Shown: piece by piece, positions 5,749 to 40,716 of the stretch
How the letters are laid out: each line of letters begins with the position of its first letter
Numbering within the stretch: position 1 is the first letter of the stretch
Source: a virus
Strand: one strand, 5' to 3'
DNA length: 40,754 nucleotides
UHGV virus genome: UHGV-1474357
Position numbers and translations under genes: made by a program
Notes under the pieces: model-generated
The model's input: only the letters and a program-made list of their open reading frames with translations
What the model was told of the DNA's origin: nothing
Database searches by the model: none

Positions 5749-5829
5749 AACTTGTTACCTCGGTCTGTTACCGTTGAGGTAATAATTATGCGTATATGGT
5801 TTGATGTCAATAGATATGAGTTAAAAAAA

Positions 5830-5901: not shown

Positions 5902-6486
5902 TTATTGTTTGTTTTTTTCGTTCTGGTTGATGACAAATTCAATGTAACTTTCGATCTTTGCTTTCTCGGTTTCGGGTAACAATGCGTAGCGCGAGCGATC
6001 ATAGTTGATGGTCGCAGGGTCGTGCGGGTGAATCAGTAATTCATAGCCGTGACGCCCGAATGCGGATGCAACATTCTCCAGGGTGGAAATGGAAACGCTG
6101 ACCTCATTGTTTAACAGGCGGCTGATTGTCACCTGGGCTACGCCGGATGCGCGGTGAAGTTTTCCCTGTGTTGAAAGGTCGCGGCTTTCGCTCATCCAGC
6201 GTTCCAGGTTGTGAGCCGCCAGCTGGCCAATGTCGCTTGGGCCGACAGGCTGAAAACCTTCCTGAGAAAGCGAGCGATCGATATCAAGCCAGTTACGGGG
6301 TTTATTGGCGGCAGCTTCAATTTTTCGTGCAACCTGGTCGCCGATAACCTTCTTGCCAAGAGCCCAGCGGTTTACCAGATTTGCCTGAGTTCCAAGTTTT
6401 TCAGCCATCCGCGTCTGAACACCATTGAATTCACGGTCGATCAAGTCGTTGAGATTTTGCCTGCGGACGTCCTGGATACTTTTCAT
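5902..6486 (-). CDS. Prophage repressor (CI-like), two HTH-like segments, no S24 peptidase domain
   Basis: 194 aa; HTH-like segments (QTRMAEKLGTQANLVNRWALGKK and VAQVTISRLLNNEVSVSISTLENVASAFG); divergent from the Cro-like gene; no Ala-Gly/Ser-Lys LexA-like autocleavage module recognisable. Confidence 0.75.
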   Translation of the reverse strand: MKSIQDVRRQNLNDLIDREFNGVQTRMAEKLGTQANLVNRWALGKKVIGDQVARKIEAAANKPRNWLDIDRSLSQEGFQPVGPSDIGQLAAHNLERWMSESRDLSTQGKLHRASGVAQVTISRLLNNEVSVSISTLENVASAFGRHGYELLIHPHDPATINYDRSRYALLPETEKAKIESYIEFVINQNEKNKQ

Positions 6487-6640: not shown

Positions 6641-6871
6641 ATGAGCGATAACGGACATTTCGATTTCAAAAAGCACTGGCTTGCACTTACTCCGGATGAG
6701 CGTGAAGCCTTCGCACAGGAAGCCGGAACGACGAGTCACTATATCCAGACTCACTTAACAGGTAAGCGCAAAATGCCAGGTAAGGTATTGATGAATGGGC
6801 TTTTTAAAGCCTGTAAAACAAGACAATGGCTGCGCTCAAAAGCAGAACTGGCATACTTCTTCTACTCATGA
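6641..6871 (+). CDS. Cro-like HTH regulator
   Basis: 76 aa, HTH-like segment AQEAGTTSHYIQTHLTGKRKMP; first gene of rightward operon, divergent from repressor. Confidence 0.7.
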   Translation: MSDNGHFDFKKHWLALTPDEREAFAQEAGTTSHYIQTHLTGKRKMPGKVLMNGLFKACKTRQWLRSKAELAYFFYS

Positions 6872-8945: not shown

Positions 8946-9290
8946 ATGAGAAAACAGATACAGGCTCTTGGTCGACTCAAAACAGGCCAGATGAACAAAA
9001 CAGAATCTGCGTATTGCCAGCACCTTGAGCAGCGTAAACGTGCAGGGGAAATCGCCTGGTATCGGTTCGAGGGTATCAAGCTGCGGTTAGCTGATAACAC
9101 GTTTTATACGCCCGATTTCGCTGTGATGCTCGCCACCGGAGAGATGGAACTGCACGAAGTGAAAGGTTTCTGGACCGACGACGCCAGAGTGAAAACCAAA
9201 GTCGCCGCAGATCAGTATCCGTTCCGAATAATCGGGGTAACGGTTAAACCAAAGAAAGCAGGTGGCGGCTGGAACATCGAAGAGTTCTGA
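8946..9290 (+). CDS. DUF1064-like small phage nuclease-fold protein (VRR-NUC-like), putative
   Basis: 114 aa with pattern KTESAYCQHLEQRKRAGEI...LHEVKG recalled as DUF1064-like; assignment by pattern recognition only. Confidence 0.55.
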   Translation: MRKQIQALGRLKTGQMNKTESAYCQHLEQRKRAGEIAWYRFEGIKLRLADNTFYTPDFAVMLATGEMELHEVKGFWTDDARVKTKVAADQYPFRIIGVTVKPKKAGGGWNIEEF

Positions 9291-9789: not shown

Positions 9790-10484
9790 GCGAAATTAAT
9801 TACCAGGCACTGCGTGAGGCGGCAGAGAAAGCAACGTGTGGCGAGTGGTCGCTCGAATATGGAGATGGCCGATTTGATGGTGATGATGCACTAATTCATC
9901 GTGAAGTTGCTGGATATATTCCCATTTGCAGAATTGAAGGAGCGCATCCAGAAAGCCGTTTCTATGAAGATTTCCAAATGGAGCAGCAGGCCAATGCTGA
10001 ATTCATCGCCGCAGCCAATCCAGCTACCGTGCTGGCACTGCTGGATGAACGGGAAAGAAACCTGCAATACATCAAAAGCCGCGATCAGGAGAACGAGGAT
10101 ATTGCGCTTACGGTTGGGAAGCTGAGAGTTGAGCTTGAGGAGACAAAATCAAAACTCAACGAGCAGCGTGAGTATTACGAAGGTGTTATCTCGGATGGGA
10201 GTAAGCGCATTGCTGAACTAGAGGAGCGGGAAATAAAACCAGCCAAAGGTGAAGTTCTGGTCGTTGTATCTGGTTTTACTGGTTGCGGAAAAAGCGCCAT
10301 TGCCGGGGAAATAGAAATCGCGATGAAGGCTATTGGTGTACCGGTTAAGTGGACTAATGGCGATGCAGAAAAGCGCATGACTGGCGCTGACTGGCTGACT
10401 GCGATTGAGATGTACAAACCAACTGTGCGCATCGTGGAAGTTAATGTGCCACGCGCCCCTGGCATTCGCATCAAAGGAGAGTGA
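9786..10484 (+). CDS. Ead/Ea22-like protein with coiled-coil centre and C-terminal Walker-A-like motif
   Basis: GTG start overlapping previous stop; N-terminal CGEWSLEY motif typical of Ea22-like proteins; C-terminal GFTGCGKS (GxxGxGKS). Confidence 0.6.
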   Translation: MSEINYQALREAAEKATCGEWSLEYGDGRFDGDDALIHREVAGYIPICRIEGAHPESRFYEDFQMEQQANAEFIAAANPATVLALLDERERNLQYIKSRDQENEDIALTVGKLRVELEETKSKLNEQREYYEGVISDGSKRIAELEEREIKPAKGEVLVVVSGFTGCGKSAIAGEIEIAMKAIGVPVKWTNGDAEKRMTGADWLTAIEMYKPTVRIVEVNVPRAPGIRIKGE

Positions 10485-10485
10485 G

Positions 10486-10677
10486 ATGAACGGACAAATC
10501 TCAATTGTTCGGCCGGGAGCATGTGACGATCGCGAGATACGAATGATTATTCGTCTGGCGATGGGGAAAACAATAACGGCTCTCATTACTCCAGAAAATC
10601 TCGCATTAGCATTAACCGGAAAGTCAGACCTGCCAGTAGAGCTAAAGCTGCGAAATGTTGAGATTAAGGTGAAATAG
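10486..10677 (+). CDS. Hypothetical small protein (63 aa)
   Basis: ATG 10486 two nt after previous stop with AAAGGAGAG SD. Confidence 0.5.
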   Translation: MNGQISIVRPGACDDREIRMIIRLAMGKTITALITPENLALALTGKSDLPVELKLRNVEIKVK

Positions 10678-10679
10678 CT

Positions 10680-11867
10680 ATGACCACTATTACCAAAGAA
10701 CGTATCGAATTATTCATTAAAAATCCGCTTGATAACGGGCTTACCCGTGGCGAACAAATGGAAGTGGCACGAATTGCACTGGCATCGCTTGAGACAAAAC
10801 CAATAGGTGCATTCCACATTGCTGAACAGCAAGTTGACGGCACAAGTGACTACATCAAGGATGGAGAGTGGCCTATTGATAATGGGATTATTGAAGTCTA
10901 CGCCGCTCCGCCAGTACCGGTAGTACCTGCTGCATTACCTGAGAACGACGATGAGGACGGGCATGACATTGATTATCTTGAGCCATCTGAAGTTTACGCG
11001 CTTGGGCGAACAGCTGGATGGAACGCCTGCCGCGCCGCCATGCTTCAGTCCGGAAACTTTCGGGAAAACAAGAATTCGTCAACCAATAATTTTCGGGAAA
11101 TCGCGGAAACGTCAACCAACTATCCGGTAATTCCTAGTGAGGTGTTGTCCGCAATCCTGAAGGTTGCCAAGATTCGTGCCGATTTCGATGATTTTGACGG
11201 TGACAGGCGAGGTATCGGTGATTGTCTGGATGAGGCTGAGCAAGAGCTTATCGTTACCATTAACAAATATGCCAGTCAGTTGGCAGCAGAACCGATAGCG
11301 ACTAATGACGTTCGAGAGCAAACAGCCGTTCCGCCAGTTCCTGTAATACAGGCTGATGTCGCGCAGGCAATTGAAAAACTCAAACGGAAATTAGTGGAAT
11401 GCAATCGCTATAACTACTGCGCAGATGCAGTTAAGGGCGTTGAGTATGCCTGCCACGCTGCCATGCTTCAGGGTAGCCAACCTGTAAGCCAAACTTACAA
11501 GTTTCCAGTTAATACACCTTGCCAGGATGCGCCAGCCCATATCTGGCTGCAAACAGCTGGAGTATGGCCAGAAGATGGCGAGTTAAGCGAATTAACGTGG
11601 TGCAGCCACAATCAGCACCATGATGACACGCTATATGTTCGAGCTGACTTGGTAAATGGCAATTCTCCGGGAACTCCGGATGGTTGGATAAGCTGTAGTG
11701 AGCGAATGCCGAACGACGCGCAGTGGTGCGTAGTGAACACAGAATACGGGTATTACGTGCAATGCTGGTCTGAAGGTCAAGGGTGGCTTGGTGATGATAT
11801 CAGCATACCTGAATGCGATGTAATCAATTGGATGCCGCTACCAGAACCGCCGCAGGAGGCGAAATGA
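10680..11867 (+). CDS. Hypothetical protein with C-terminal DUF551-like domain
   Basis: 395 aa; C-terminal WISCSERMPNDAQWCVV...GQGWLGDD...NWMPLPEPP resembles DUF551 of prophage proteins; internal duplicated segment (AGWNACRAAMLQSG / YACHAAMLQGS). Confidence 0.65.
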   Translation: MTTITKERIELFIKNPLDNGLTRGEQMEVARIALASLETKPIGAFHIAEQQVDGTSDYIKDGEWPIDNGIIEVYAAPPVPVVPAALPENDDEDGHDIDYLEPSEVYALGRTAGWNACRAAMLQSGNFRENKNSSTNNFREIAETSTNYPVIPSEVLSAILKVAKIRADFDDFDGDRRGIGDCLDEAEQELIVTINKYASQLAAEPIATNDVREQTAVPPVPVIQADVAQAIEKLKRKLVECNRYNYCADAVKGVEYACHAAMLQGSQPVSQTYKFPVNTPCQDAPAHIWLQTAGVWPEDGELSELTWCSHNQHHDDTLYVRADLVNGNSPGTPDGWISCSERMPNDAQWCVVNTEYGYYVQCWSEGQGWLGDDISIPECDVINWMPLPEPPQEAK

Positions 11868-31184: not shown

Positions 31185-32036
31185 ATGAAAAAAATAAATT
31201 TGTTTTTTGGCATAGTGCTTTCAATAGTCTCTGTAAATCCTACAGCTGCCAGTTCATTGCAATGCAATAAGGATAACTTTGATGCATGCAAAACGTGTGA
31301 ACAATTATCAAAGGCTATCGACTTAAAAGAACCTAATCGTGGCGATTACTATAGAGGGGCTTTATGGAATGGGCTTTACGCCTCTTATGTAATTAATTGC
31401 CCTGTGGTTGCTGAGAAGTTACTGAGCCATGGTGCTATACCATCATATGGCGGATATATGGGGTCTATGGGGGCGGTTCTGACAGGAAAATGGCCTCATA
31501 ACAATGAATCAATAAATCTTTCATGGGCAGATTTGCTTATAAAACATGGATTTGATGTTAATAGGCATACGGGGAATTATAAATCAGCTACTGAAGTATG
31601 GGCTATAGATAAAAAACAGATTGAATATAAGTCAGTTTTTGACAAGTTAATTCAATCCAGCGAAGTAAAACCACTCGATCCTTCAAGAAATTTAGAATGG
31701 TGTGCGTCTGAAGGGTATCGCTCAGTTGTCGTTTATTCCCTTAACTCATGTATAGAAAATGCTATAAAACGTTTGGATGATGGTGTTTCTTCAGCGTCTG
31801 ATATTTCATCAGCAGCCGTAAATTCCTGTACTAGCGATGTAGAAAATTTCAATAAGCATTTGGCATGCAAAGCAGCTGTTAAAGAAAACTCTGATAAAGA
31901 GAGAAGCGACGTTTACCAGTTATTAACCAGTGATAGTCAAATGAATAAAAATGTTATTGATATGCTGAAGGAAAGAAATATTGAAACGGTTCTTGAATTT
32001 AGAGCTGAAAATCGATCAGCGAAAACTGCACAGTGA
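31185..32036 (+). CDS. Secreted protein with ankyrin-like repeats (AT-rich cargo gene)
   Basis: N-terminal signal peptide (MKKINLFFGIVLSIVSVNPTAAS); repeat-like segments LLSHGAIPS and LLIKHGFDVNRHTGN; clearly lower GC than flanking virion genes; strong terminator follows. Confidence 0.55.
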   Translation: MKKINLFFGIVLSIVSVNPTAASSLQCNKDNFDACKTCEQLSKAIDLKEPNRGDYYRGALWNGLYASYVINCPVVAEKLLSHGAIPSYGGYMGSMGAVLTGKWPHNNESINLSWADLLIKHGFDVNRHTGNYKSATEVWAIDKKQIEYKSVFDKLIQSSEVKPLDPSRNLEWCASEGYRSVVVYSLNSCIENAIKRLDDGVSSASDISSAAVNSCTSDVENFNKHLACKAAVKENSDKERSDVYQLLTSDSQMNKNVIDMLKERNIETVLEFRAENRSAKTAQ

Positions 32037-32065: not shown

Positions 32066-32227
32066 TTAACGAATGCCACCGCCACCCGGGCGGGAATCCG
32101 CAGAACGCCCACCGCAGCGGGAGCCGTCAGCAGCAGTGTCGCTGTCGTGCTGACAACGACCGGCAAAGGCCTGAGTTGAAGCTACCAGAGACAACAAAAC
32201 GAACAGTGCAGCAAATGCTTTTTTCAT
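32066..32227 (-). CDS. Putative small secreted protein (53 aa)
   Basis: Internal ATG gives MKKAFAALFVLLSLVASTQAFA signal-peptide-like N-terminus; -35/-10-like TTGACG / TATAGA upstream; weak SD, so low confidence. Confidence 0.3.
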   Translation of the reverse strand: MKKAFAALFVLLSLVASTQAFAGRCQHDSDTAADGSRCGGRSADSRPGGGGIR

Positions 32228-32300
32228 TGTGAAATTTCCATCTATAAGCCACCTCAATGTGGCGTCAATGAGTGTAGCACTGACTTTTGTTTCGTCCATA

Positions 32301-32323
32301 AAAAAGCCCTCAGTGCGGGCTTA
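32301..32323 (-). terminator. Intrinsic terminator after the two-gene cassette
   Basis: Minus-strand hairpin AAGCCCGCACTGAGGGCTT followed by TTTTT. Confidence 0.5.
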
Positions 32324-32698
32324 ATTAACTTCGAGGATAATAGAATCTTTAGACTTGAATCCCACTTTCCTCATGGCTGTAATGACGTTTTGGATAACCC
32401 ACGTTTTCCCAAACTCTCTTTCGTGTACAATGGCGCAAGGAAAATGAAGGGCGCTTTTGTTGCACTTTATGGTGAAAGTTGTACCTTCAGCAAAATCCAA
32501 AACAGTCTGCAGATGTGCAGATATAAACGATTTAAACACATCTTCAAGCTCAGCAAGAGTAATTGGCGGTTTGTTCCTCTCGTCGTTCAGGCGTTCATAT
32601 GCTGCGTGAAATGAAAAGTGAATTCTTGCCGCATCTTCTTGCAAGATCTCGTTAATCTCATCCTCAAGATCAATGAGTTGTTGTTCTGTTATAGACAT
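32321..32698 (-). CDS. Hypothetical protein (125 aa), second gene of overlapping two-gene cassette
   Basis: ATG 32698 overlaps the upstream gene end by 10 nt; acidic helical N-terminus; AT-rich. Confidence 0.55.
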   Translation of the reverse strand: MSITEQQLIDLEDEINEILQEDAARIHFSFHAAYERLNDERNKPPITLAELEDVFKSFISAHLQTVLDFAEGTTFTIKCNKSALHFPCAIVHEREFGKTWVIQNVITAMRKVGFKSKDSIILEVN

Positions 32699-32907
32699 AG
32701 ATAACGGGAGGTCGCCTCACTTATTTTTTGATTTAATTCATCATCATTGGATGCACGTACAGTAGCAACATGCTTACTTTGGCGTAGGGTCCCAATTCTG
32801 ATATCAAATTCTTCATTATCGAAAGAGTCAACGAAAACAGCTTTACCAGTTTCTGGATGGTAAAAAGAGGCATAGTTTTGGTTGAGTTGCATATCAAATT
32901 TAAACAT
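32689..32907 (-). CDS. Hypothetical protein (72 aa), first gene of overlapping two-gene cassette
   Basis: Strong SD GGGAGGA before ATG 32907; dyad operator about 118 bp upstream. Confidence 0.55.
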   Translation of the reverse strand: MFKFDMQLNQNYASFYHPETGKAVFVDSFDNEEFDIRIGTLRQSKHVATVRASNDDELNQKISEATSRYLCL

Positions 32908-33024
32908 ATCATCCTCCCATACGGGAACAGACGTGACTTACATACGGTGTGATTTTGACTAGTTAACTTTCTGCAGCAAAACCATCACGGTAACTACAAA
33001 CTAAAATGTTACAAATCAACTTTC

Positions 33025-33039
33025 TTACCTTTGGGGTAA
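33025..33039. promoter_or_regulatory. TTACC-N5-GGTAA dyad (TTACCTTTGGGGTAA)
   Basis: Perfect arms; on the minus strand it sits 5 nt upstream of a TTGATT -35-like hexamer ahead of the two-gene cassette. Confidence 0.45.
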
Positions 33040-33065
33040 TAGTACGCTATTCACCTGCAATCTGT

Positions 33066-33090
33066 ACAGAATTATTTAAAGGCACATCCC
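33066..33090 (-). terminator. Hairpin after antirepressor-like gene
   Basis: Minus-strand GGCACAGGGATGTGCC followed by TTTAAATAATT. Confidence 0.4.
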
Positions 33091-33105
33091 TGTGCCGCCG
33101 TTCTG

Positions 33106-33762
33106 TCAGAAGACCCCTGCCTTGTCGTTGATGTATTCCGCGTGGGTCTGGATATCACGCAGGCATTTACTCACACCGACGATGTAGCAGAACATGGTAG
33201 TCAGCTCCGCCGCCGCGCCCGATACGTCGTGCCCGTCGTCCTGTAACTGGTTCAGCAGATTCATCAGCAGTGAGTTCTCCGTCAGGCCGAGAACACCAGA
33301 TGGGGAATGAATCAGGCTGCGGTAGCCGGGCTTCAGTGGGGCGCTGTATTCTTTTTTGTCTTCCAGCTTGATCGCCTCCATAATGGCGGGCATGAAGCCT
33401 GACAAGACCTTCTCCACTTTTGTTTCTTGTTGTCTTAAACGTTTCTCGCATTCAATGAAGTAGCGTCGCACCTGGCGACCTTTTTCGTTACGCTCGACCA
33501 TCGCCAGCTCTTTGGCTGTATCAAGGGTGAGGTGGTACTCTTTGCGGTTGTGGCCGCCTCTACCAGATGTTTGCTTTCCCAAATTGGAAAGCAAAATATA
33601 GTCTTGATTTTCAATGAATTCGTATTCTGATATGCGATTTGTAATCCATGCTGCAAACACCTTTTTAACACCTAAAAAAGCGTGCAGATCGCGGGCATTA
33701 CAAAGTAGGGCTGTTTCGTTAGATATAGTGCCGTTGAATACGGGGATGAGTTGAGCGTTCAT
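33106..33762 (-). CDS. Antirepressor-like protein (Bro-N/AntA-like N-terminal domain, Ant C-terminal domain)
   Basis: 218 aa; N-terminus [27 protein letters not shown] and central [26 protein letters not shown] resemble phage antirepressor families; GGAG SD; C-terminal 70 aa homologous to the small gene at 34913-35170. Confidence 0.7.
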
Positions 33763-33920
33763 GATGGCGTCTCCACTTAGCGAATTACATCACCACCGCT
33801 GAGACCAATCAGATGGTGGTGAACTGAACGGAGTTGGTCTTACCGGCCTAAGTGGTACCGGCGTCCTTTCGGACCCCCATTCAGCCCACCATAATTCTGG
33901 CATGACTGTGCTATACGCAT

Positions 33921-34030
33921 AAAAAAACCACGTCTGGCGTGGTATGCGCCACTTAGTAATCCGGGAGACCAATCCCGGCACTGGATTTTGCCAGTGCCCG
34001 ATTACTATGGCACAAGAGGAGTGCAATGTA
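33921..34030 (-). ncRNA. Candidate structured leader / small RNA with intrinsic terminator upstream of antirepressor gene
   Basis: Minus-strand hairpins GGCACTGG-CAAAAT-CCAGTGCC and CCGGGA-TTGGTC-TCCCGG, then terminator ACCACGCC-AGA-CGTGGT plus TTTTTTT (33921-33943); promoter-like TTGATT / TTATCA hexamers at about 34081-34049 and a dyad operator at 34034-34048; no credible ORF. Confidence 0.3.
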
Positions 34031-34033
34031 AAT

Positions 34034-34048
34034 TTACCGCAAAGGTAA
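34034..34048. promoter_or_regulatory. TTACC-N5-GGTAA dyad (TTACCGCAAAGGTAA)
   Basis: Perfect arms; directly abuts the -10-like hexamer of the putative leftward ant promoter. Confidence 0.45.
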
Positions 34049-34126
34049 TGATAAACGCGAAGAAATATTAAAATCAACCGTATTTGGTTGATTGCGTTTA
34101 ACGCTTGATCACCTGAAAGCAAGATA

Positions 34127-34161: not shown

Positions 34162-34890
34162 ATGGAAGTTTTCTGGATAGTTGTTGGTGTGGTTGCGGTG
34201 ATTATTTACGTTATCAACCAGAACAAGACTAAGATCTCTGATCGTACGGTCGTTAATCATAACAAAACGATAAAGACCGAAGATGGGGAGATAACGATTA
34301 ATCGTACACAGGTGATAGAACACACCTCTACTCAGTTTCAAAAAACTGGAGGTAATGCGCCTAATATTTCCGCACCTCCTGCTTATGATAGTGCGGTAAT
34401 CCAGACATATTATAAACAGCAGGAGTTAGCAAAAGAGAGGCAACTGATTCAGCCAAAGCCGTTTACAGCTGAGCTTCCACCTGGAGTGTCAACGCGTCCG
34501 GCATATCATGGAAGATTCCCTGGTGATGACATATCGTCTCAGTCATCTAAAAAAGCACCTCAGGCAGTATCAGAGCCAGCAAGAATACCTTCTGTATCGC
34601 CGCCAAAAGAAGAATCAGCTAACAGAGTTTCAAGTGGTAGCAAGCAGTGCTTGCGATGCAGAATAAACCTACCATATGAAAAATTCAGGAAATCGTCAAA
34701 AAATCCAGATGGATTGACTAAGTGGTGTGCAAGGTGTCTCGATGGCCCAAAGAATACACGCCATATGAAGTGGTGCCCAATTTGTAATGTCCGCAGAAAA
34801 CGAACAAGCTTTTACCCTAATAATCAAAATGCGGATGGCTTAATGGCATGGTGCAAAACGTGCTGGGACGAGCACAAAGCGAAACGATAG
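34162..34890 (+). CDS. Membrane-anchored protein with repeated zinc-ribbon-like motifs
   Basis: N-terminal TM helix (VFWIVVGVVAVIIYVI); C-terminal repeats of C-x2-C...NPDGL..WC..C (CLRCRINLPYEKFRKSSKNPDGLTKWCARC; CPICNVRRKRTSFYPNNQNADGLMAWCKTC); AT-rich; bidirectional terminator follows. Confidence 0.6.
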   Translation: MEVFWIVVGVVAVIIYVINQNKTKISDRTVVNHNKTIKTEDGEITINRTQVIEHTSTQFQKTGGNAPNISAPPAYDSAVIQTYYKQQELAKERQLIQPKPFTAELPPGVSTRPAYHGRFPGDDISSQSSKKAPQAVSEPARIPSVSPPKEESANRVSSGSKQCLRCRINLPYEKFRKSSKNPDGLTKWCARCLDGPKNTRHMKWCPICNVRRKRTSFYPNNQNADGLMAWCKTCWDEHKAKR

Positions 34891-34914
34891 GCCGCTCTTG
34901 CGGCCTTTAAATTT
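34890..34914. terminator. Bidirectional intrinsic terminator between convergent genes
   Basis: GGCCGC-TCTT-GCGGCC flanked by A/T runs; stem nearly identical to the terminator at 32033-32057. Confidence 0.6.
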
Positions 34915-35170
34915 ACCGGGTTTGTTTTCGTAATTGTTCGGCACAATAGTCGAGATGTGTTTGCAGATCCTGCATAGACATCTGTGAGCTGGTGACGTAG
35001 TTAATCAGTGCAGTCAGTTCGGCAAGTGGGCCATCGACATTAAATCCATCCTTATCGAGATCCCGGAGTAATTTCATCAAGTGCGATCCCTCCACCAGTG
35101 ACCTGACGCCTCCCGGCGTGTGAATCCTTTCGGTAAATCCGTCTTCCAGTGGATAGTGATACTGCTGCAT
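34913..35170 (-). CDS. Small protein (85 aa) homologous to the antirepressor C-terminal domain; candidate SOS-controlled antirepressor
   Basis: About 40% identity by eye to residues about 150-218 of the 33106-33762 product (shared PL, IH.P.GV, LM.LL, DG..V.G, AELT, D.QTH..Y); GGAG SD; LexA box 19 bp upstream of the ATG. Confidence 0.6.
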   Translation of the reverse strand: MQQYHYPLEDGFTERIHTPGGVRSLVEGSHLMKLLRDLDKDGFNVDGPLAELTALINYVTSSQMSMQDLQTHLDYCAEQLRKQTR

Positions 35171-35188
35171 CTTATCTTCTCCATGCAA

Positions 35189-35210
35189 TAACTGTATGTT
35201 TATACAGTAA
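35189..35210. promoter_or_regulatory. LexA (SOS) box TAACTGTATGTTTATACAGTAA
   Basis: Matches CTGT-N8-ACAG with AT-rich spacer and TA flanks (consensus TACTGTATATATATACAGTA); contains TATAAA -10-like hexamer on the minus strand; positioned 19 bp upstream of ATG 35170. Confidence 0.6.
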
Positions 35211-35246
35211 CAAATAATTTGTTTGCTATCCAGCACGTTTTGCAAA

Positions 35247-35261
35247 TTACCCGAAAGGTAA
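35247..35261. promoter_or_regulatory. TTACC-N5-GGTAA dyad (TTACCCGAAAGGTAA)
   Basis: Perfect arms; between the LexA-boxed small gene and the tailspike gene. Confidence 0.45.
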
Positions 35262-35365
35262 TATCTATTGGTATTTACAGTCTTTTTATCCATATATGGT
35301 TTTTCAGGTAATAGAATAACCAGATATGCGGCGCAACGGGTGCTGCGACTATCTGGAGATTTAAC

Positions 35366-40699: not shown

Positions 40700-40716
40700 A
40701 TTGAGTGGGAATGATT
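40700..40716. repeat. attR core, 17-bp direct repeat ATTGAGTGGGAATGATT
   Basis: Exact match to 66-82; followed by a sequence resembling the native host terminator. Confidence 0.8.

Follow-up and report, generated by a model that had tools for sequence, protein, structure and literature searches.

An accessory two-gene cassette in an Escherichia coli Uetakevirus prophage: a candidate toxin-antitoxin-like module of an undescribed family

What is the role of two small, overlapping genes that lie between the ejection-protein genes and the tailspike gene of a phage genome, and do the regulatory signals around them belong to the genes or to the phage? The question is raised by the virus genome UHGV-1474357 (40,754 nucleotides (nt); this whole stretch of DNA is referred to as the window), in which an earlier sequence-only reading had recognized a cassette of two genes at 32321–33060 and proposed a toxin-antitoxin, abortive-infection or superinfection-exclusion pair in the moron position of a T7-like phage, equipped with its own operator, promoter and terminator. 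Based on the comparative analysis described here, the cassette is best explained, with a probability of about one half, as an autonomous two-gene toxin-antitoxin-like module of an undescribed family that was captured as prophage cargo: a putatively harmful enzyme of 125 amino acids (aa) would be held in check by a 72-aa inhibitor, and both would be expressed from an operator-controlled promoter of the phage backbone.

The coding parts of the cassette and its leader are the following:

32689–32907, minus strand: gene 1, open reading frame (ORF) for a 72-aa acidic protein (isoelectric point (pI) 5.2), predicted small inhibitor or antitoxin-like partner
32321–32698, minus strand: gene 2, ORF for a 125-aa protein (pI 5.2), assigned to an enzyme-like, uncurated domain superfamily and predicted to be a toxic effector
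32912–32918, minus strand: Shine-Dalgarno (SD) sequence GGGAGGA of gene 1, taken from the sequence, with the ATG 4 nt further on
32908–33024, minus strand: cargo-specific leader that differs among slot variants and holds TTGATT (33019–33014), from BLAST boundary mapping against the prophage loci L002–L004

The gene structure agrees with the sequence-only reading in all points: the genes of 72 and 125 aa have 10 nt in common (ATGTCTATAA), a strong SD (GGGAGGA, 32918–32912) precedes the first, and the cassette is AT-rich (GC content of 0.388 versus 0.483 for the whole window). Gene 2 possesses no SD of its own, and its translation therefore probably depends on coupling to gene 1.

That neither protein carries an assignable motif, as had also been stated, was confirmed by the database searches: no match to Pfam, NCBIfam or PADLOC-DB v2 was obtained for either protein at E ≤ 1, PDB sequence searches with both yielded nothing meaningful, and PHROGs returned only families of unknown function (14630, 14518 and 23027). 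Both are annotated solely as "hypothetical", and no literature on either protein was found by accession, locus tag or name of a domain of unknown function (DUF). For the 72-aa protein a fold was predicted with confidence (beta4-alpha); no DNA-binding fold was present among the top structural matches of this model, no helix-turn-helix (HTH), ribbon-helix-helix, AbrB or Phd domain was detected in Pfam/NCBIfam, and the search of BFVD with the model gave nothing at E ≤ 0.001. The model of the 125-aa protein was unusable (predicted local distance difference test score of 49).

The evidence on the nature of the cassette comes from the distribution of the two genes. Close homologs of both proteins are encoded next to each other in Enterobacter, Pantoea, Salmonella and Klebsiella; in prophages of Klebsiella pneumoniae, where homologs are present in thousands of assemblies, the pair (70 and 125 aa, 4-nt overlap) is very common and occupies the same slot downstream of Bro-N, and on the Pantoea allii chromosome it is found on its own, surrounded by transporter, acyltransferase and cupin genes. 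With the 72-aa family as the sole query, 22 species-level loci were retrieved; they span Klebsiella, Pantoea, Winslowiella, Rahnella, Yersinia, Saccharophagus, Microbulbifer, Cellvibrio, Oceanospirillaceae, Thioploca, Burkholderia, Pseudoduganella, a Pseudomonas megaplasmid and Martelella. An ORF with the 125-aa domain follows directly downstream in 20 of them, four of which have a truncated or frame-split downstream gene (L017, L018 and L029; in L024 both genes are affected), while in L020 and L032 the 125-aa gene is absent and the small gene intact. In the reverse direction, 35 loci were fetched via the 125-aa family (14 metagenomic loci with 35–64% identity and 21 IMG/VR loci with 57–100%), and every one of them has the 72-aa partner directly upstream (intact in 34, cut by the contig end in L051); the partner is still present for 125-aa homologs that are only 32–37% identical to the protein of the window.

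Loss of the two genes is asymmetric: 6 of the 22 loci (two orphan 72-like genes, four degraded 125-like genes) contrast with no orphan 125-like gene in 35 (Fisher p = 0.002, an optimistic value, as several loci are close relatives and some of the splits may be assembly errors). Such an asymmetry would be expected if genomes can retain the 125-aa protein only together with the 72-aa protein. Among the homologous loci the genes are separated by a short gap or overlap by 4 nt, the leaders contain a promoter-like site in 62% of cases (background 20%), and a strong SD is found in nearly all of them. The contexts comprise the prophage slot, the chromosome, the vicinity of an IS200-type transposase or (in Yersinia) of an integrase, the Pseudomonas megaplasmid and housekeeping neighbours; as judged from these genomes, the pair is obligate, autonomous and mobile, also outside prophages. 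In the metagenomic locus L048 (pair at 340–923), the start of a second 72-aa-family gene was seen about 1.4 kb downstream at the contig end (2368–2538), possibly a tandem second module.

The 125-aa protein belongs to a large superfamily. When 1.84 billion cluster representatives (clusters at 50% identity) were searched with a profile of the domain, 680 matched at E ≤ 1e-3; of the best 150, 47 consist of the domain alone, 43 carry it at the C-terminus, 42 at the N-terminus and 17 internally. Across 32 diverse copies (approximately 25–45% identity) the residues H31, R36, R41, T107, R110, K111 and F114 are invariant and E12, F32, N38, D39, N42, I46, E50, P87 and M109 near-invariant, and the characteristic motifs read FTxHFxDRxNDxRNxPxIT, LNxPxV and KTIMRKKxFK. 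The superfamily is basic (median pI 9.2), yet the acidic protein of the window has kept every invariant residue. No consistent Pfam family match was obtained among the superfamily members.

In marine phages the domain occurs unpaired, inside modular proteins of 450–1100 aa, fused in shuffled order to cytidylyltransferase-like (CTP_transf_like), Zeta-toxin/AAA_33 P-loop kinase, DUF5824, DUF3008, DUF5661, DUF5754 and HNH domains. The 72-aa partner is absent from all 66 marine-type phage loci, and the 72-aa profile found no match in the multidomain proteins; the idea that the cassette is a split version of these proteins was rejected, as they contain no hidden 72-aa copy. One multidomain relative of 531 aa is encoded by the virulent-phage contig L011 (JGI Ga0438755_307977; 143–2124, 10001–11596), whose early region also encodes DnaB and RNR as well as a T4-type RNA ligase 1, an AAA_33 kinase and two metallophosphatases; the ligase, kinase and phosphatase genes form an RNA-repair-like set that hints at an RNA-related role of the domain. 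Nine domain stretches in the 5,704-aa protein P0152 were not reproduced locally and were disregarded.

Within E. coli the cassette is one of several alternative inserts of a defined slot. An 861-nt query across the cassette was compared with 5,426 complete E. coli genomes, 463 of which matched; only four contain the cassette in full length (CP031215, CP189657, SEC470 and the strain ETEC H10407), the remainder the two flanks only. BLAST comparison with prophages of other cargo placed the end of the common upstream flank at approximately 33020–33025, whereas the common downstream flank begins at 32321–32323 in all cargo variants, i.e. at the stop codon of the 125-aa gene. The edges of the slot are formed by two backbone genes:

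33106–33792, minus strand: BRO-N/AntA antirepressor gene, upstream slot edge (Pfam AntA, E 4e-26; RefSeq "BRO-N domain-containing protein")
32066–32227, minus strand: gene of a 53-aa protein with signal-peptide-like N-terminus (WP_000708858.1), downstream slot edge (RefSeq in L001, L003 and L004), annotated "putative transmembrane anchored protein" in TL-2011b

Between them, TL-2011b and many genomes carry a 59-aa ORF together with a YafO-family toxin gene, E. coli SCZE5 a pair of hydrophobic proteins of 62 and 110 aa (L003 3112–3634), and other prophages a single protein of about 210 aa, a DUF4760 protein or a DUF2335 protein; none of these alternative cargoes is related to the 72/125-aa pair of the window. 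The two SCZE5 proteins are strongly hydrophobic, probably located in the membrane, and represent another kind of candidate exclusion module.

The signals surrounding the cassette have to be assigned in the light of these boundaries:

32297–32322, minus strand: intrinsic-terminator-like hairpin with T-run, shared backbone (−11 kcal/mol, z-score −2.2)
33025–33039, no strand: palindrome TTACC-N5-GGTAA (TTACCccaaaGGTAA at 33039–33025), candidate phage-regulator operator, one of 11 copies
33039–33068, minus strand: candidate backbone promoter reading into the slot, with −35 TGTACA (33068–33063), 18 nt and −10 TACTAT (33044–33039), proposed from the sequence
33081–33096, minus strand: hairpin GGCACA-GGGA-TGTGCC after the BRO-N stop codon, followed by TTTAAATAATT, a weak terminator or attenuator of the conserved backbone (−10.1 kcal/mol, z-score −2.45)

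Terminator and palindrome lie outside the cargo boundaries and are therefore backbone parts, not cassette parts. The sequences that had been ascribed to the cassette as operator and terminator thus do exist (palindrome at 33039–33025, hairpin and T-run at 32322–32297), but by the boundary mapping they belong to the shared backbone. The TTGATT hexamer (33019–33014), taken earlier for a −35-like element, was discarded: no acceptable −10 follows, only TAGTTA (2/6) being present 16–18 nt further on, and the site was not among the top promoter candidates. The leader at 32908–33024 offered weak promoter candidates only, and no minus-strand promoter was found in it by the consensus scan.

The palindrome is a phage-wide element. 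Eleven perfect copies are present in the window (at 5768, 5830, 6542, 8866, 8928, 12836, 16043, 33025, 34034, 34127 and 35247) versus 0.00 expected from 100 shuffles, whereby a chance 5-bp repeat was rejected; four further copies contain one mismatch (216, 6590, 6927 and 12854). The copies sit in intergenic regulatory regions. The CI-like HTH gene at 5902–6486 has them on either side; they also occupy the gap between this gene and the divergently oriented cro-like gene (6641–6871), precede the gene at 8946 as well as the terminase and portal regions, and surround the antirepressor genes. In 9 of the 11 copies the palindrome is fused in register to a −10-like hexamer (at least 4/6 of TATAAT; background approximately 20%), the last T of the hexamer being the first T of the palindrome. 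The copy upstream of the slot is kept in L002–L004 and, in a 1-mismatch version, in Klebsiella. The palindrome is regarded as a candidate operator of the Uetakevirus regulatory circuit; the ZX5 paper does not describe this palindrome.

The promoter next to this palindrome differs among the prophages. In TL-2011b and KC-Dl-1 the slot promoter reads TTGCAG-17-TACTAT, fused to TACC..GGTAA, and in Klebsiella prophages TTGCAA-17-TATATT followed by TACCTCAACGGTAc. A 6-nt indel (ACTGTG/ACTGGG) between TTGCAG and TACTAT (33045–33060 compared with L002 4050–4072), deleted in the window and in SCZE5, shifts the spacing from 17 to about 11 nt; TGTACA, at a distance of 18 nt, offers an alternative −35. 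The slot promoter may differ in strength from prophage to prophage. Judged by its position, the palindrome would act as a phage-regulator operator over the transcription start of a backbone promoter from which any cargo would be read. Should the CI-like repressor bind to it, induction or infection would turn the cassette on.

With regard to toxicity, binding, chemistry and trigger, we infer the following mode of action. Transcription would enter from the backbone promoter; as the phage-wide palindrome overlies the start region of this promoter, expression is probably tied to the state of a phage regulator. The 72-aa protein would be made first and in excess, because a strong SD precedes gene 1 and none the overlapping gene 2, and is predicted to neutralise the 125-aa protein through direct binding. 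The latter, presumably a compact enzyme-like domain, would be the active and potentially harmful component. Its most likely chemistry is cleavage or modification of nucleic acid, probably RNA: the histidine in the predicted N-terminal helix, the threonine in the C-terminal KTIMRKK and the arginine and lysine residues resemble those of metal-independent BECR-type RNases and therefore make RNA or nucleic-acid chemistry the likeliest. Release of the effector, either by loss of the inhibitor or by a phage trigger, would arrest the cell, and the prophage might benefit by abortive infection or exclusion or by addiction of its host.

Of the earlier proposal, the toxin-antitoxin, abortive-infection or exclusion pair in a moron position is upheld as far as an autonomous, coupled accessory pair is concerned (a hotspot that elsewhere harbours YafO, obligate pairing, asymmetric loss, and no known family); the phage type and the ownership of the signals had to be revised.

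Several points weigh against the toxin-antitoxin interpretation. Neither protein showed homology to a known toxin, antitoxin or defence protein in Pfam, NCBIfam, PADLOC or PHROGs; the 72-aa protein is devoid of a DNA-binding domain, unlike classical type II antitoxins; and both proteins are acidic (pI 5.2) in contrast to the basic wider superfamily (median 9.2). The asymmetry of loss would also fit a 72-aa effector accompanied by a dispensable 125-aa accessory protein, and the sampled loci are partly non-independent, with some split genes being possibly assembly errors. The prophage of a relative gave no obvious host phenotype, but it lacks this cargo (PMC9782041).

A more far-reaching version of the toxin-antitoxin interpretation can be formulated, although it must be called doubtful. 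According to this version, the 125-aa protein would be the enzyme-like domain of a large uncurated superfamily (at least 680 clusters at 50% identity) that marine virulent phages use unpaired in early "polyvalent" proteins and that Proteobacteria and prophages keep only together with a dedicated 70-aa beta-sheet inhibitor; in Uetakevirus the pair would constitute a phage-regulator-controlled switch for abortive infection or host shutoff, with new RNA or nucleotide chemistry and a new antitoxin fold.

Among the alternatives, the one that survives best retains the enzyme without the toxicity: the 125-aa domain would carry out a benign or counter-defence reaction on RNA or nucleotides, the 72-aa protein would serve as regulatory subunit, chaperone or specificity factor, and the pair would act at induction or infection, e.g. 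against host defence or a competing phage. The fusion partners are indeed domains of nucleotide or RNA metabolism (CTP_transf_like, AAA_33/Zeta-type kinase, HNH), the multidomain relative is found among early genes together with a T4-type RNA ligase 1, an AAA_33 kinase and phosphatases, and the phage-wide operator over the promoter may keep the cassette silent in lysogens. Such a non-toxic conflict enzyme is nevertheless considered unlikely, since the 72-aa partner is lacking in all 66 phage-type loci and in every multidomain protein, and the 125-aa enzyme therefore needs no 72-aa protein to function; the partner turns up precisely in those cases in which a bacterial genome houses the domain over the long term, in agreement with neutralisation, and the pair also exists in plain chromosomal contexts with no phage around.

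Quite improbable is an exchange of the two roles, with the 72-aa protein as effector or small toxin and the 125-aa protein as nucleic-acid-binding regulator or antidote, in a layout like that of Acr-Aca or of a reversed, HicAB-like toxin-antitoxin system. The asymmetric loss mentioned above would be compatible with an effector of 72 aa, but no HTH, HicA, HicB or Aca family match was obtained; the seven invariant residues, including His, Thr, Arg and Lys, at about 25% identity look like an active site and not like a sequence-specific reader of DNA. In phages the domain is fused to enzymes and does not adjoin small effector genes, and a 72-aa toxin would not be expected as an intact orphan without its antidote.

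An ordinary structural or housekeeping phage pair, or chance non-coding ORFs, for which the location between virion-associated genes and the tailspike and the mere "hypothetical" annotation of both proteins might speak, is hardly credible and, as far as the comparative data reach, already refuted, given that, of about 460 E. coli prophages sharing the flanks, no more than 4 carry the pair (the rest containing unrelated cargo), that it is found outside phages, and that it encodes two proteins conserved across orders of Proteobacteria, the smaller of which folds confidently.

The identity of the phage required correction. The morphogenesis block shows 97–98% nucleotide identity to the Escherichia phages EC.W1-9, TL-2011b, phiV10 and vB_EcoP_ZX5, which are temperate podoviruses of the genus Uetakevirus (PMC9782041). 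The attachment (att) core ATTGAGTGGGAATGATT has been reported for phiV10, epsilon15 and ZX5 (PMC9782041), and two perfect copies of this ATGAGTGGGAATGATT-type sequence (ATTGAGTGGGAATGATT) are present at 66–82 and 40700–40716; being located at both ends of the window, they indicate that the latter represents one complete integrated Uetakevirus (epsilon15/phiV10/TL-2011b-like) prophage of E. coli at a guaA-type site. The window also encodes a CI-like repressor, antirepressors and a C4 RNA. Assignment to the T7-like phages is in conflict with all of these features, and the related statement that T7-like genomes normally have nothing between gp16 and gp17 does not apply either: the region corresponds to an immI-like antirepressor and moron region, at the distal end of which the cassette is positioned, with the ejection-protein genes on one side and the tailspike on the other. 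This is a classic location of morons in P22-like and epsilon15-like phages, and in P22-like phages of exclusion genes as well.

Upstream of the antirepressor gene, three RNA elements were identified:

33812–33896, minus strand: C4 antisense RNA of the P1/P7 immI type (Rfam RF01695, 61.2 bits, gathering threshold 45, E 8e-11)
33921–33997, minus strand: isrK-like RNA (Rfam RF01394, 67.7 bits)
33958–34010, minus strand: c4 a1/b1 target (Rfam)

By these matches, this epsilon15-like podophage possesses an antirepressor circuit of the P1/P7 immI type, composed of C4 RNA, isrK-like RNA, a1/b1 target and BRO-N/AntA gene; the Bro-N protein of a relative phage promotes the lytic cycle (PMC9782041). A mechanically predicted 110-aa ORF at 33790–34122 (minus strand) is probably not a gene, because the C4, isrK and a1/b1 RNAs were found there. 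The 3' part of the BRO-N gene (33082–33339) recurs in inverted orientation, with 93–94% identity, within the second antirepressor gene of TL-2011b and KC-Dl-1 (L002 5158–5414; L004 4095–4352), and in these two phages the resulting 258-nt inverted repeat, possibly a recombination substrate for cargo exchange or inversion, flanks the cargo slot and the 53-aa gene.

Further ORFs were noted in the vicinity. The sequence 34162–34890 (plus strand) encodes a 242-aa protein with N-terminal hydrophobic segment and Cys-rich C-terminus (weak Stc1 match, E 5e-4), and 34913–35293 (minus strand) is a small ORF whose C-terminal part resembles by eye the C-terminal domain of the BRO-N protein; copies of the palindrome lie upstream of both. 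Convergent with the cassette, a 283-aa ORF at 31185–32036 (plus strand; GC content of 0.37) begins with a signal-peptide-like segment and matches nothing in Pfam; SCZE5 has it too, but in TL-2011b and KC-Dl-1 an Ant/Arc module takes its place, and it is therefore assigned as a second variable accessory locus.

If the toxin-antitoxin interpretation is correct, the cassette would define a new toxin-antitoxin or defence family that escapes detection by Pfam, NCBIfam and PADLOC, is abundant in Klebsiella pneumoniae and is present in ETEC H10407, and would open a first route to the function of a domain that is frequent in giant marine-phage proteins. The slot itself (BRO-N gene, cargo, 53-aa gene) is a cargo hotspot of Uetakevirus and useful for mining accessory and defence genes, and the palindrome is a testable candidate operator for the regulatory circuit of the genus.

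Compared with known systems, the neighbourhood resembles immI of P22 and of P1/P7 (c4 RNA and ant, with sieA and other morons near ant), in that the cassette is likewise located just downstream of a C4-controlled antirepressor gene; the likeness is confined to the neighbourhood, as neither P22 nor P1 has a counterpart of the cassette itself. With the type II toxin-antitoxin systems the pair shares two co-oriented, overlapping genes that move as a unit through unrelated contexts, from which it differs by the missing DNA-binding domain of the 72-aa protein. The YafO pair of the same slot likewise has a small first gene with SD, overlapping genes, mobility, identical flanks and asymmetric retention of the small gene; in sequence, neither BLASTP nor hidden Markov model similarity was detected between the window pair and the 59-aa/YafO pair of TL-2011b, and the window pair differs from YafN/YafO in having no sequence relation to these or to any catalogued toxin or antitoxin. 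For HicA/HicB, in which the small toxin gene comes first, no Pfam match was obtained at E ≤ 1, and the intact orphan small genes argue against the 72-aa protein as toxin. Immunity proteins of polymorphic toxins and small phage inhibitors (TriX, TriTu, T7 Gp1.2 and AcrIF24) are among the best structural neighbours of the 72-aa protein, with which they have in common a small acidic architecture of beta-sheet plus helix.

The BECR/PBECR RNases consist of a helix at the N-terminus and, after it, four to five strands, with a conserved His in the helix and a Ser/Thr in strand 4 (PMC5512222, Iyer et al. 2017), and occur solo or inside polyvalent phage proteins (PMC5512222). The 125-aa domain is likewise about 115–125 aa in length, found either by itself or terminally in large modular phage proteins, and furnished with a conserved His and Thr (H31, T107), the placement of which on structural elements, as well as the order of helices before strands, was taken from the low-confidence model. 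Its fusion partners are CTP_transf_like, AAA_33/Zeta, DUF5824, DUF3008, DUF5661 and DUF5754 and not MuF, portal or MPTase domains. The 125-aa protein of the window gave no match to PBECR1–5 or MuF_C at E ≤ 1; an apparent MuF_C/PBECR link was rejected as noise (1 of 32 members, E 0.003–0.006, out of register with H31), and the Mu gp30 seed for a MuF_C profile yielded only four near-identical fragments, too few for a profile comparison. As the PBECR profile test failed, the domain is not classed as a BECR member; by analogy it may nonetheless work like a BECR-type RNase. The pair is a new family of a known kind that requires no new principle, and the sharing of the 125-aa domain between solo and polyvalent proteins matches, by analogy, the toxin and effector domains common to toxin-antitoxin systems and phage polyvalent proteins (PMC5512222).

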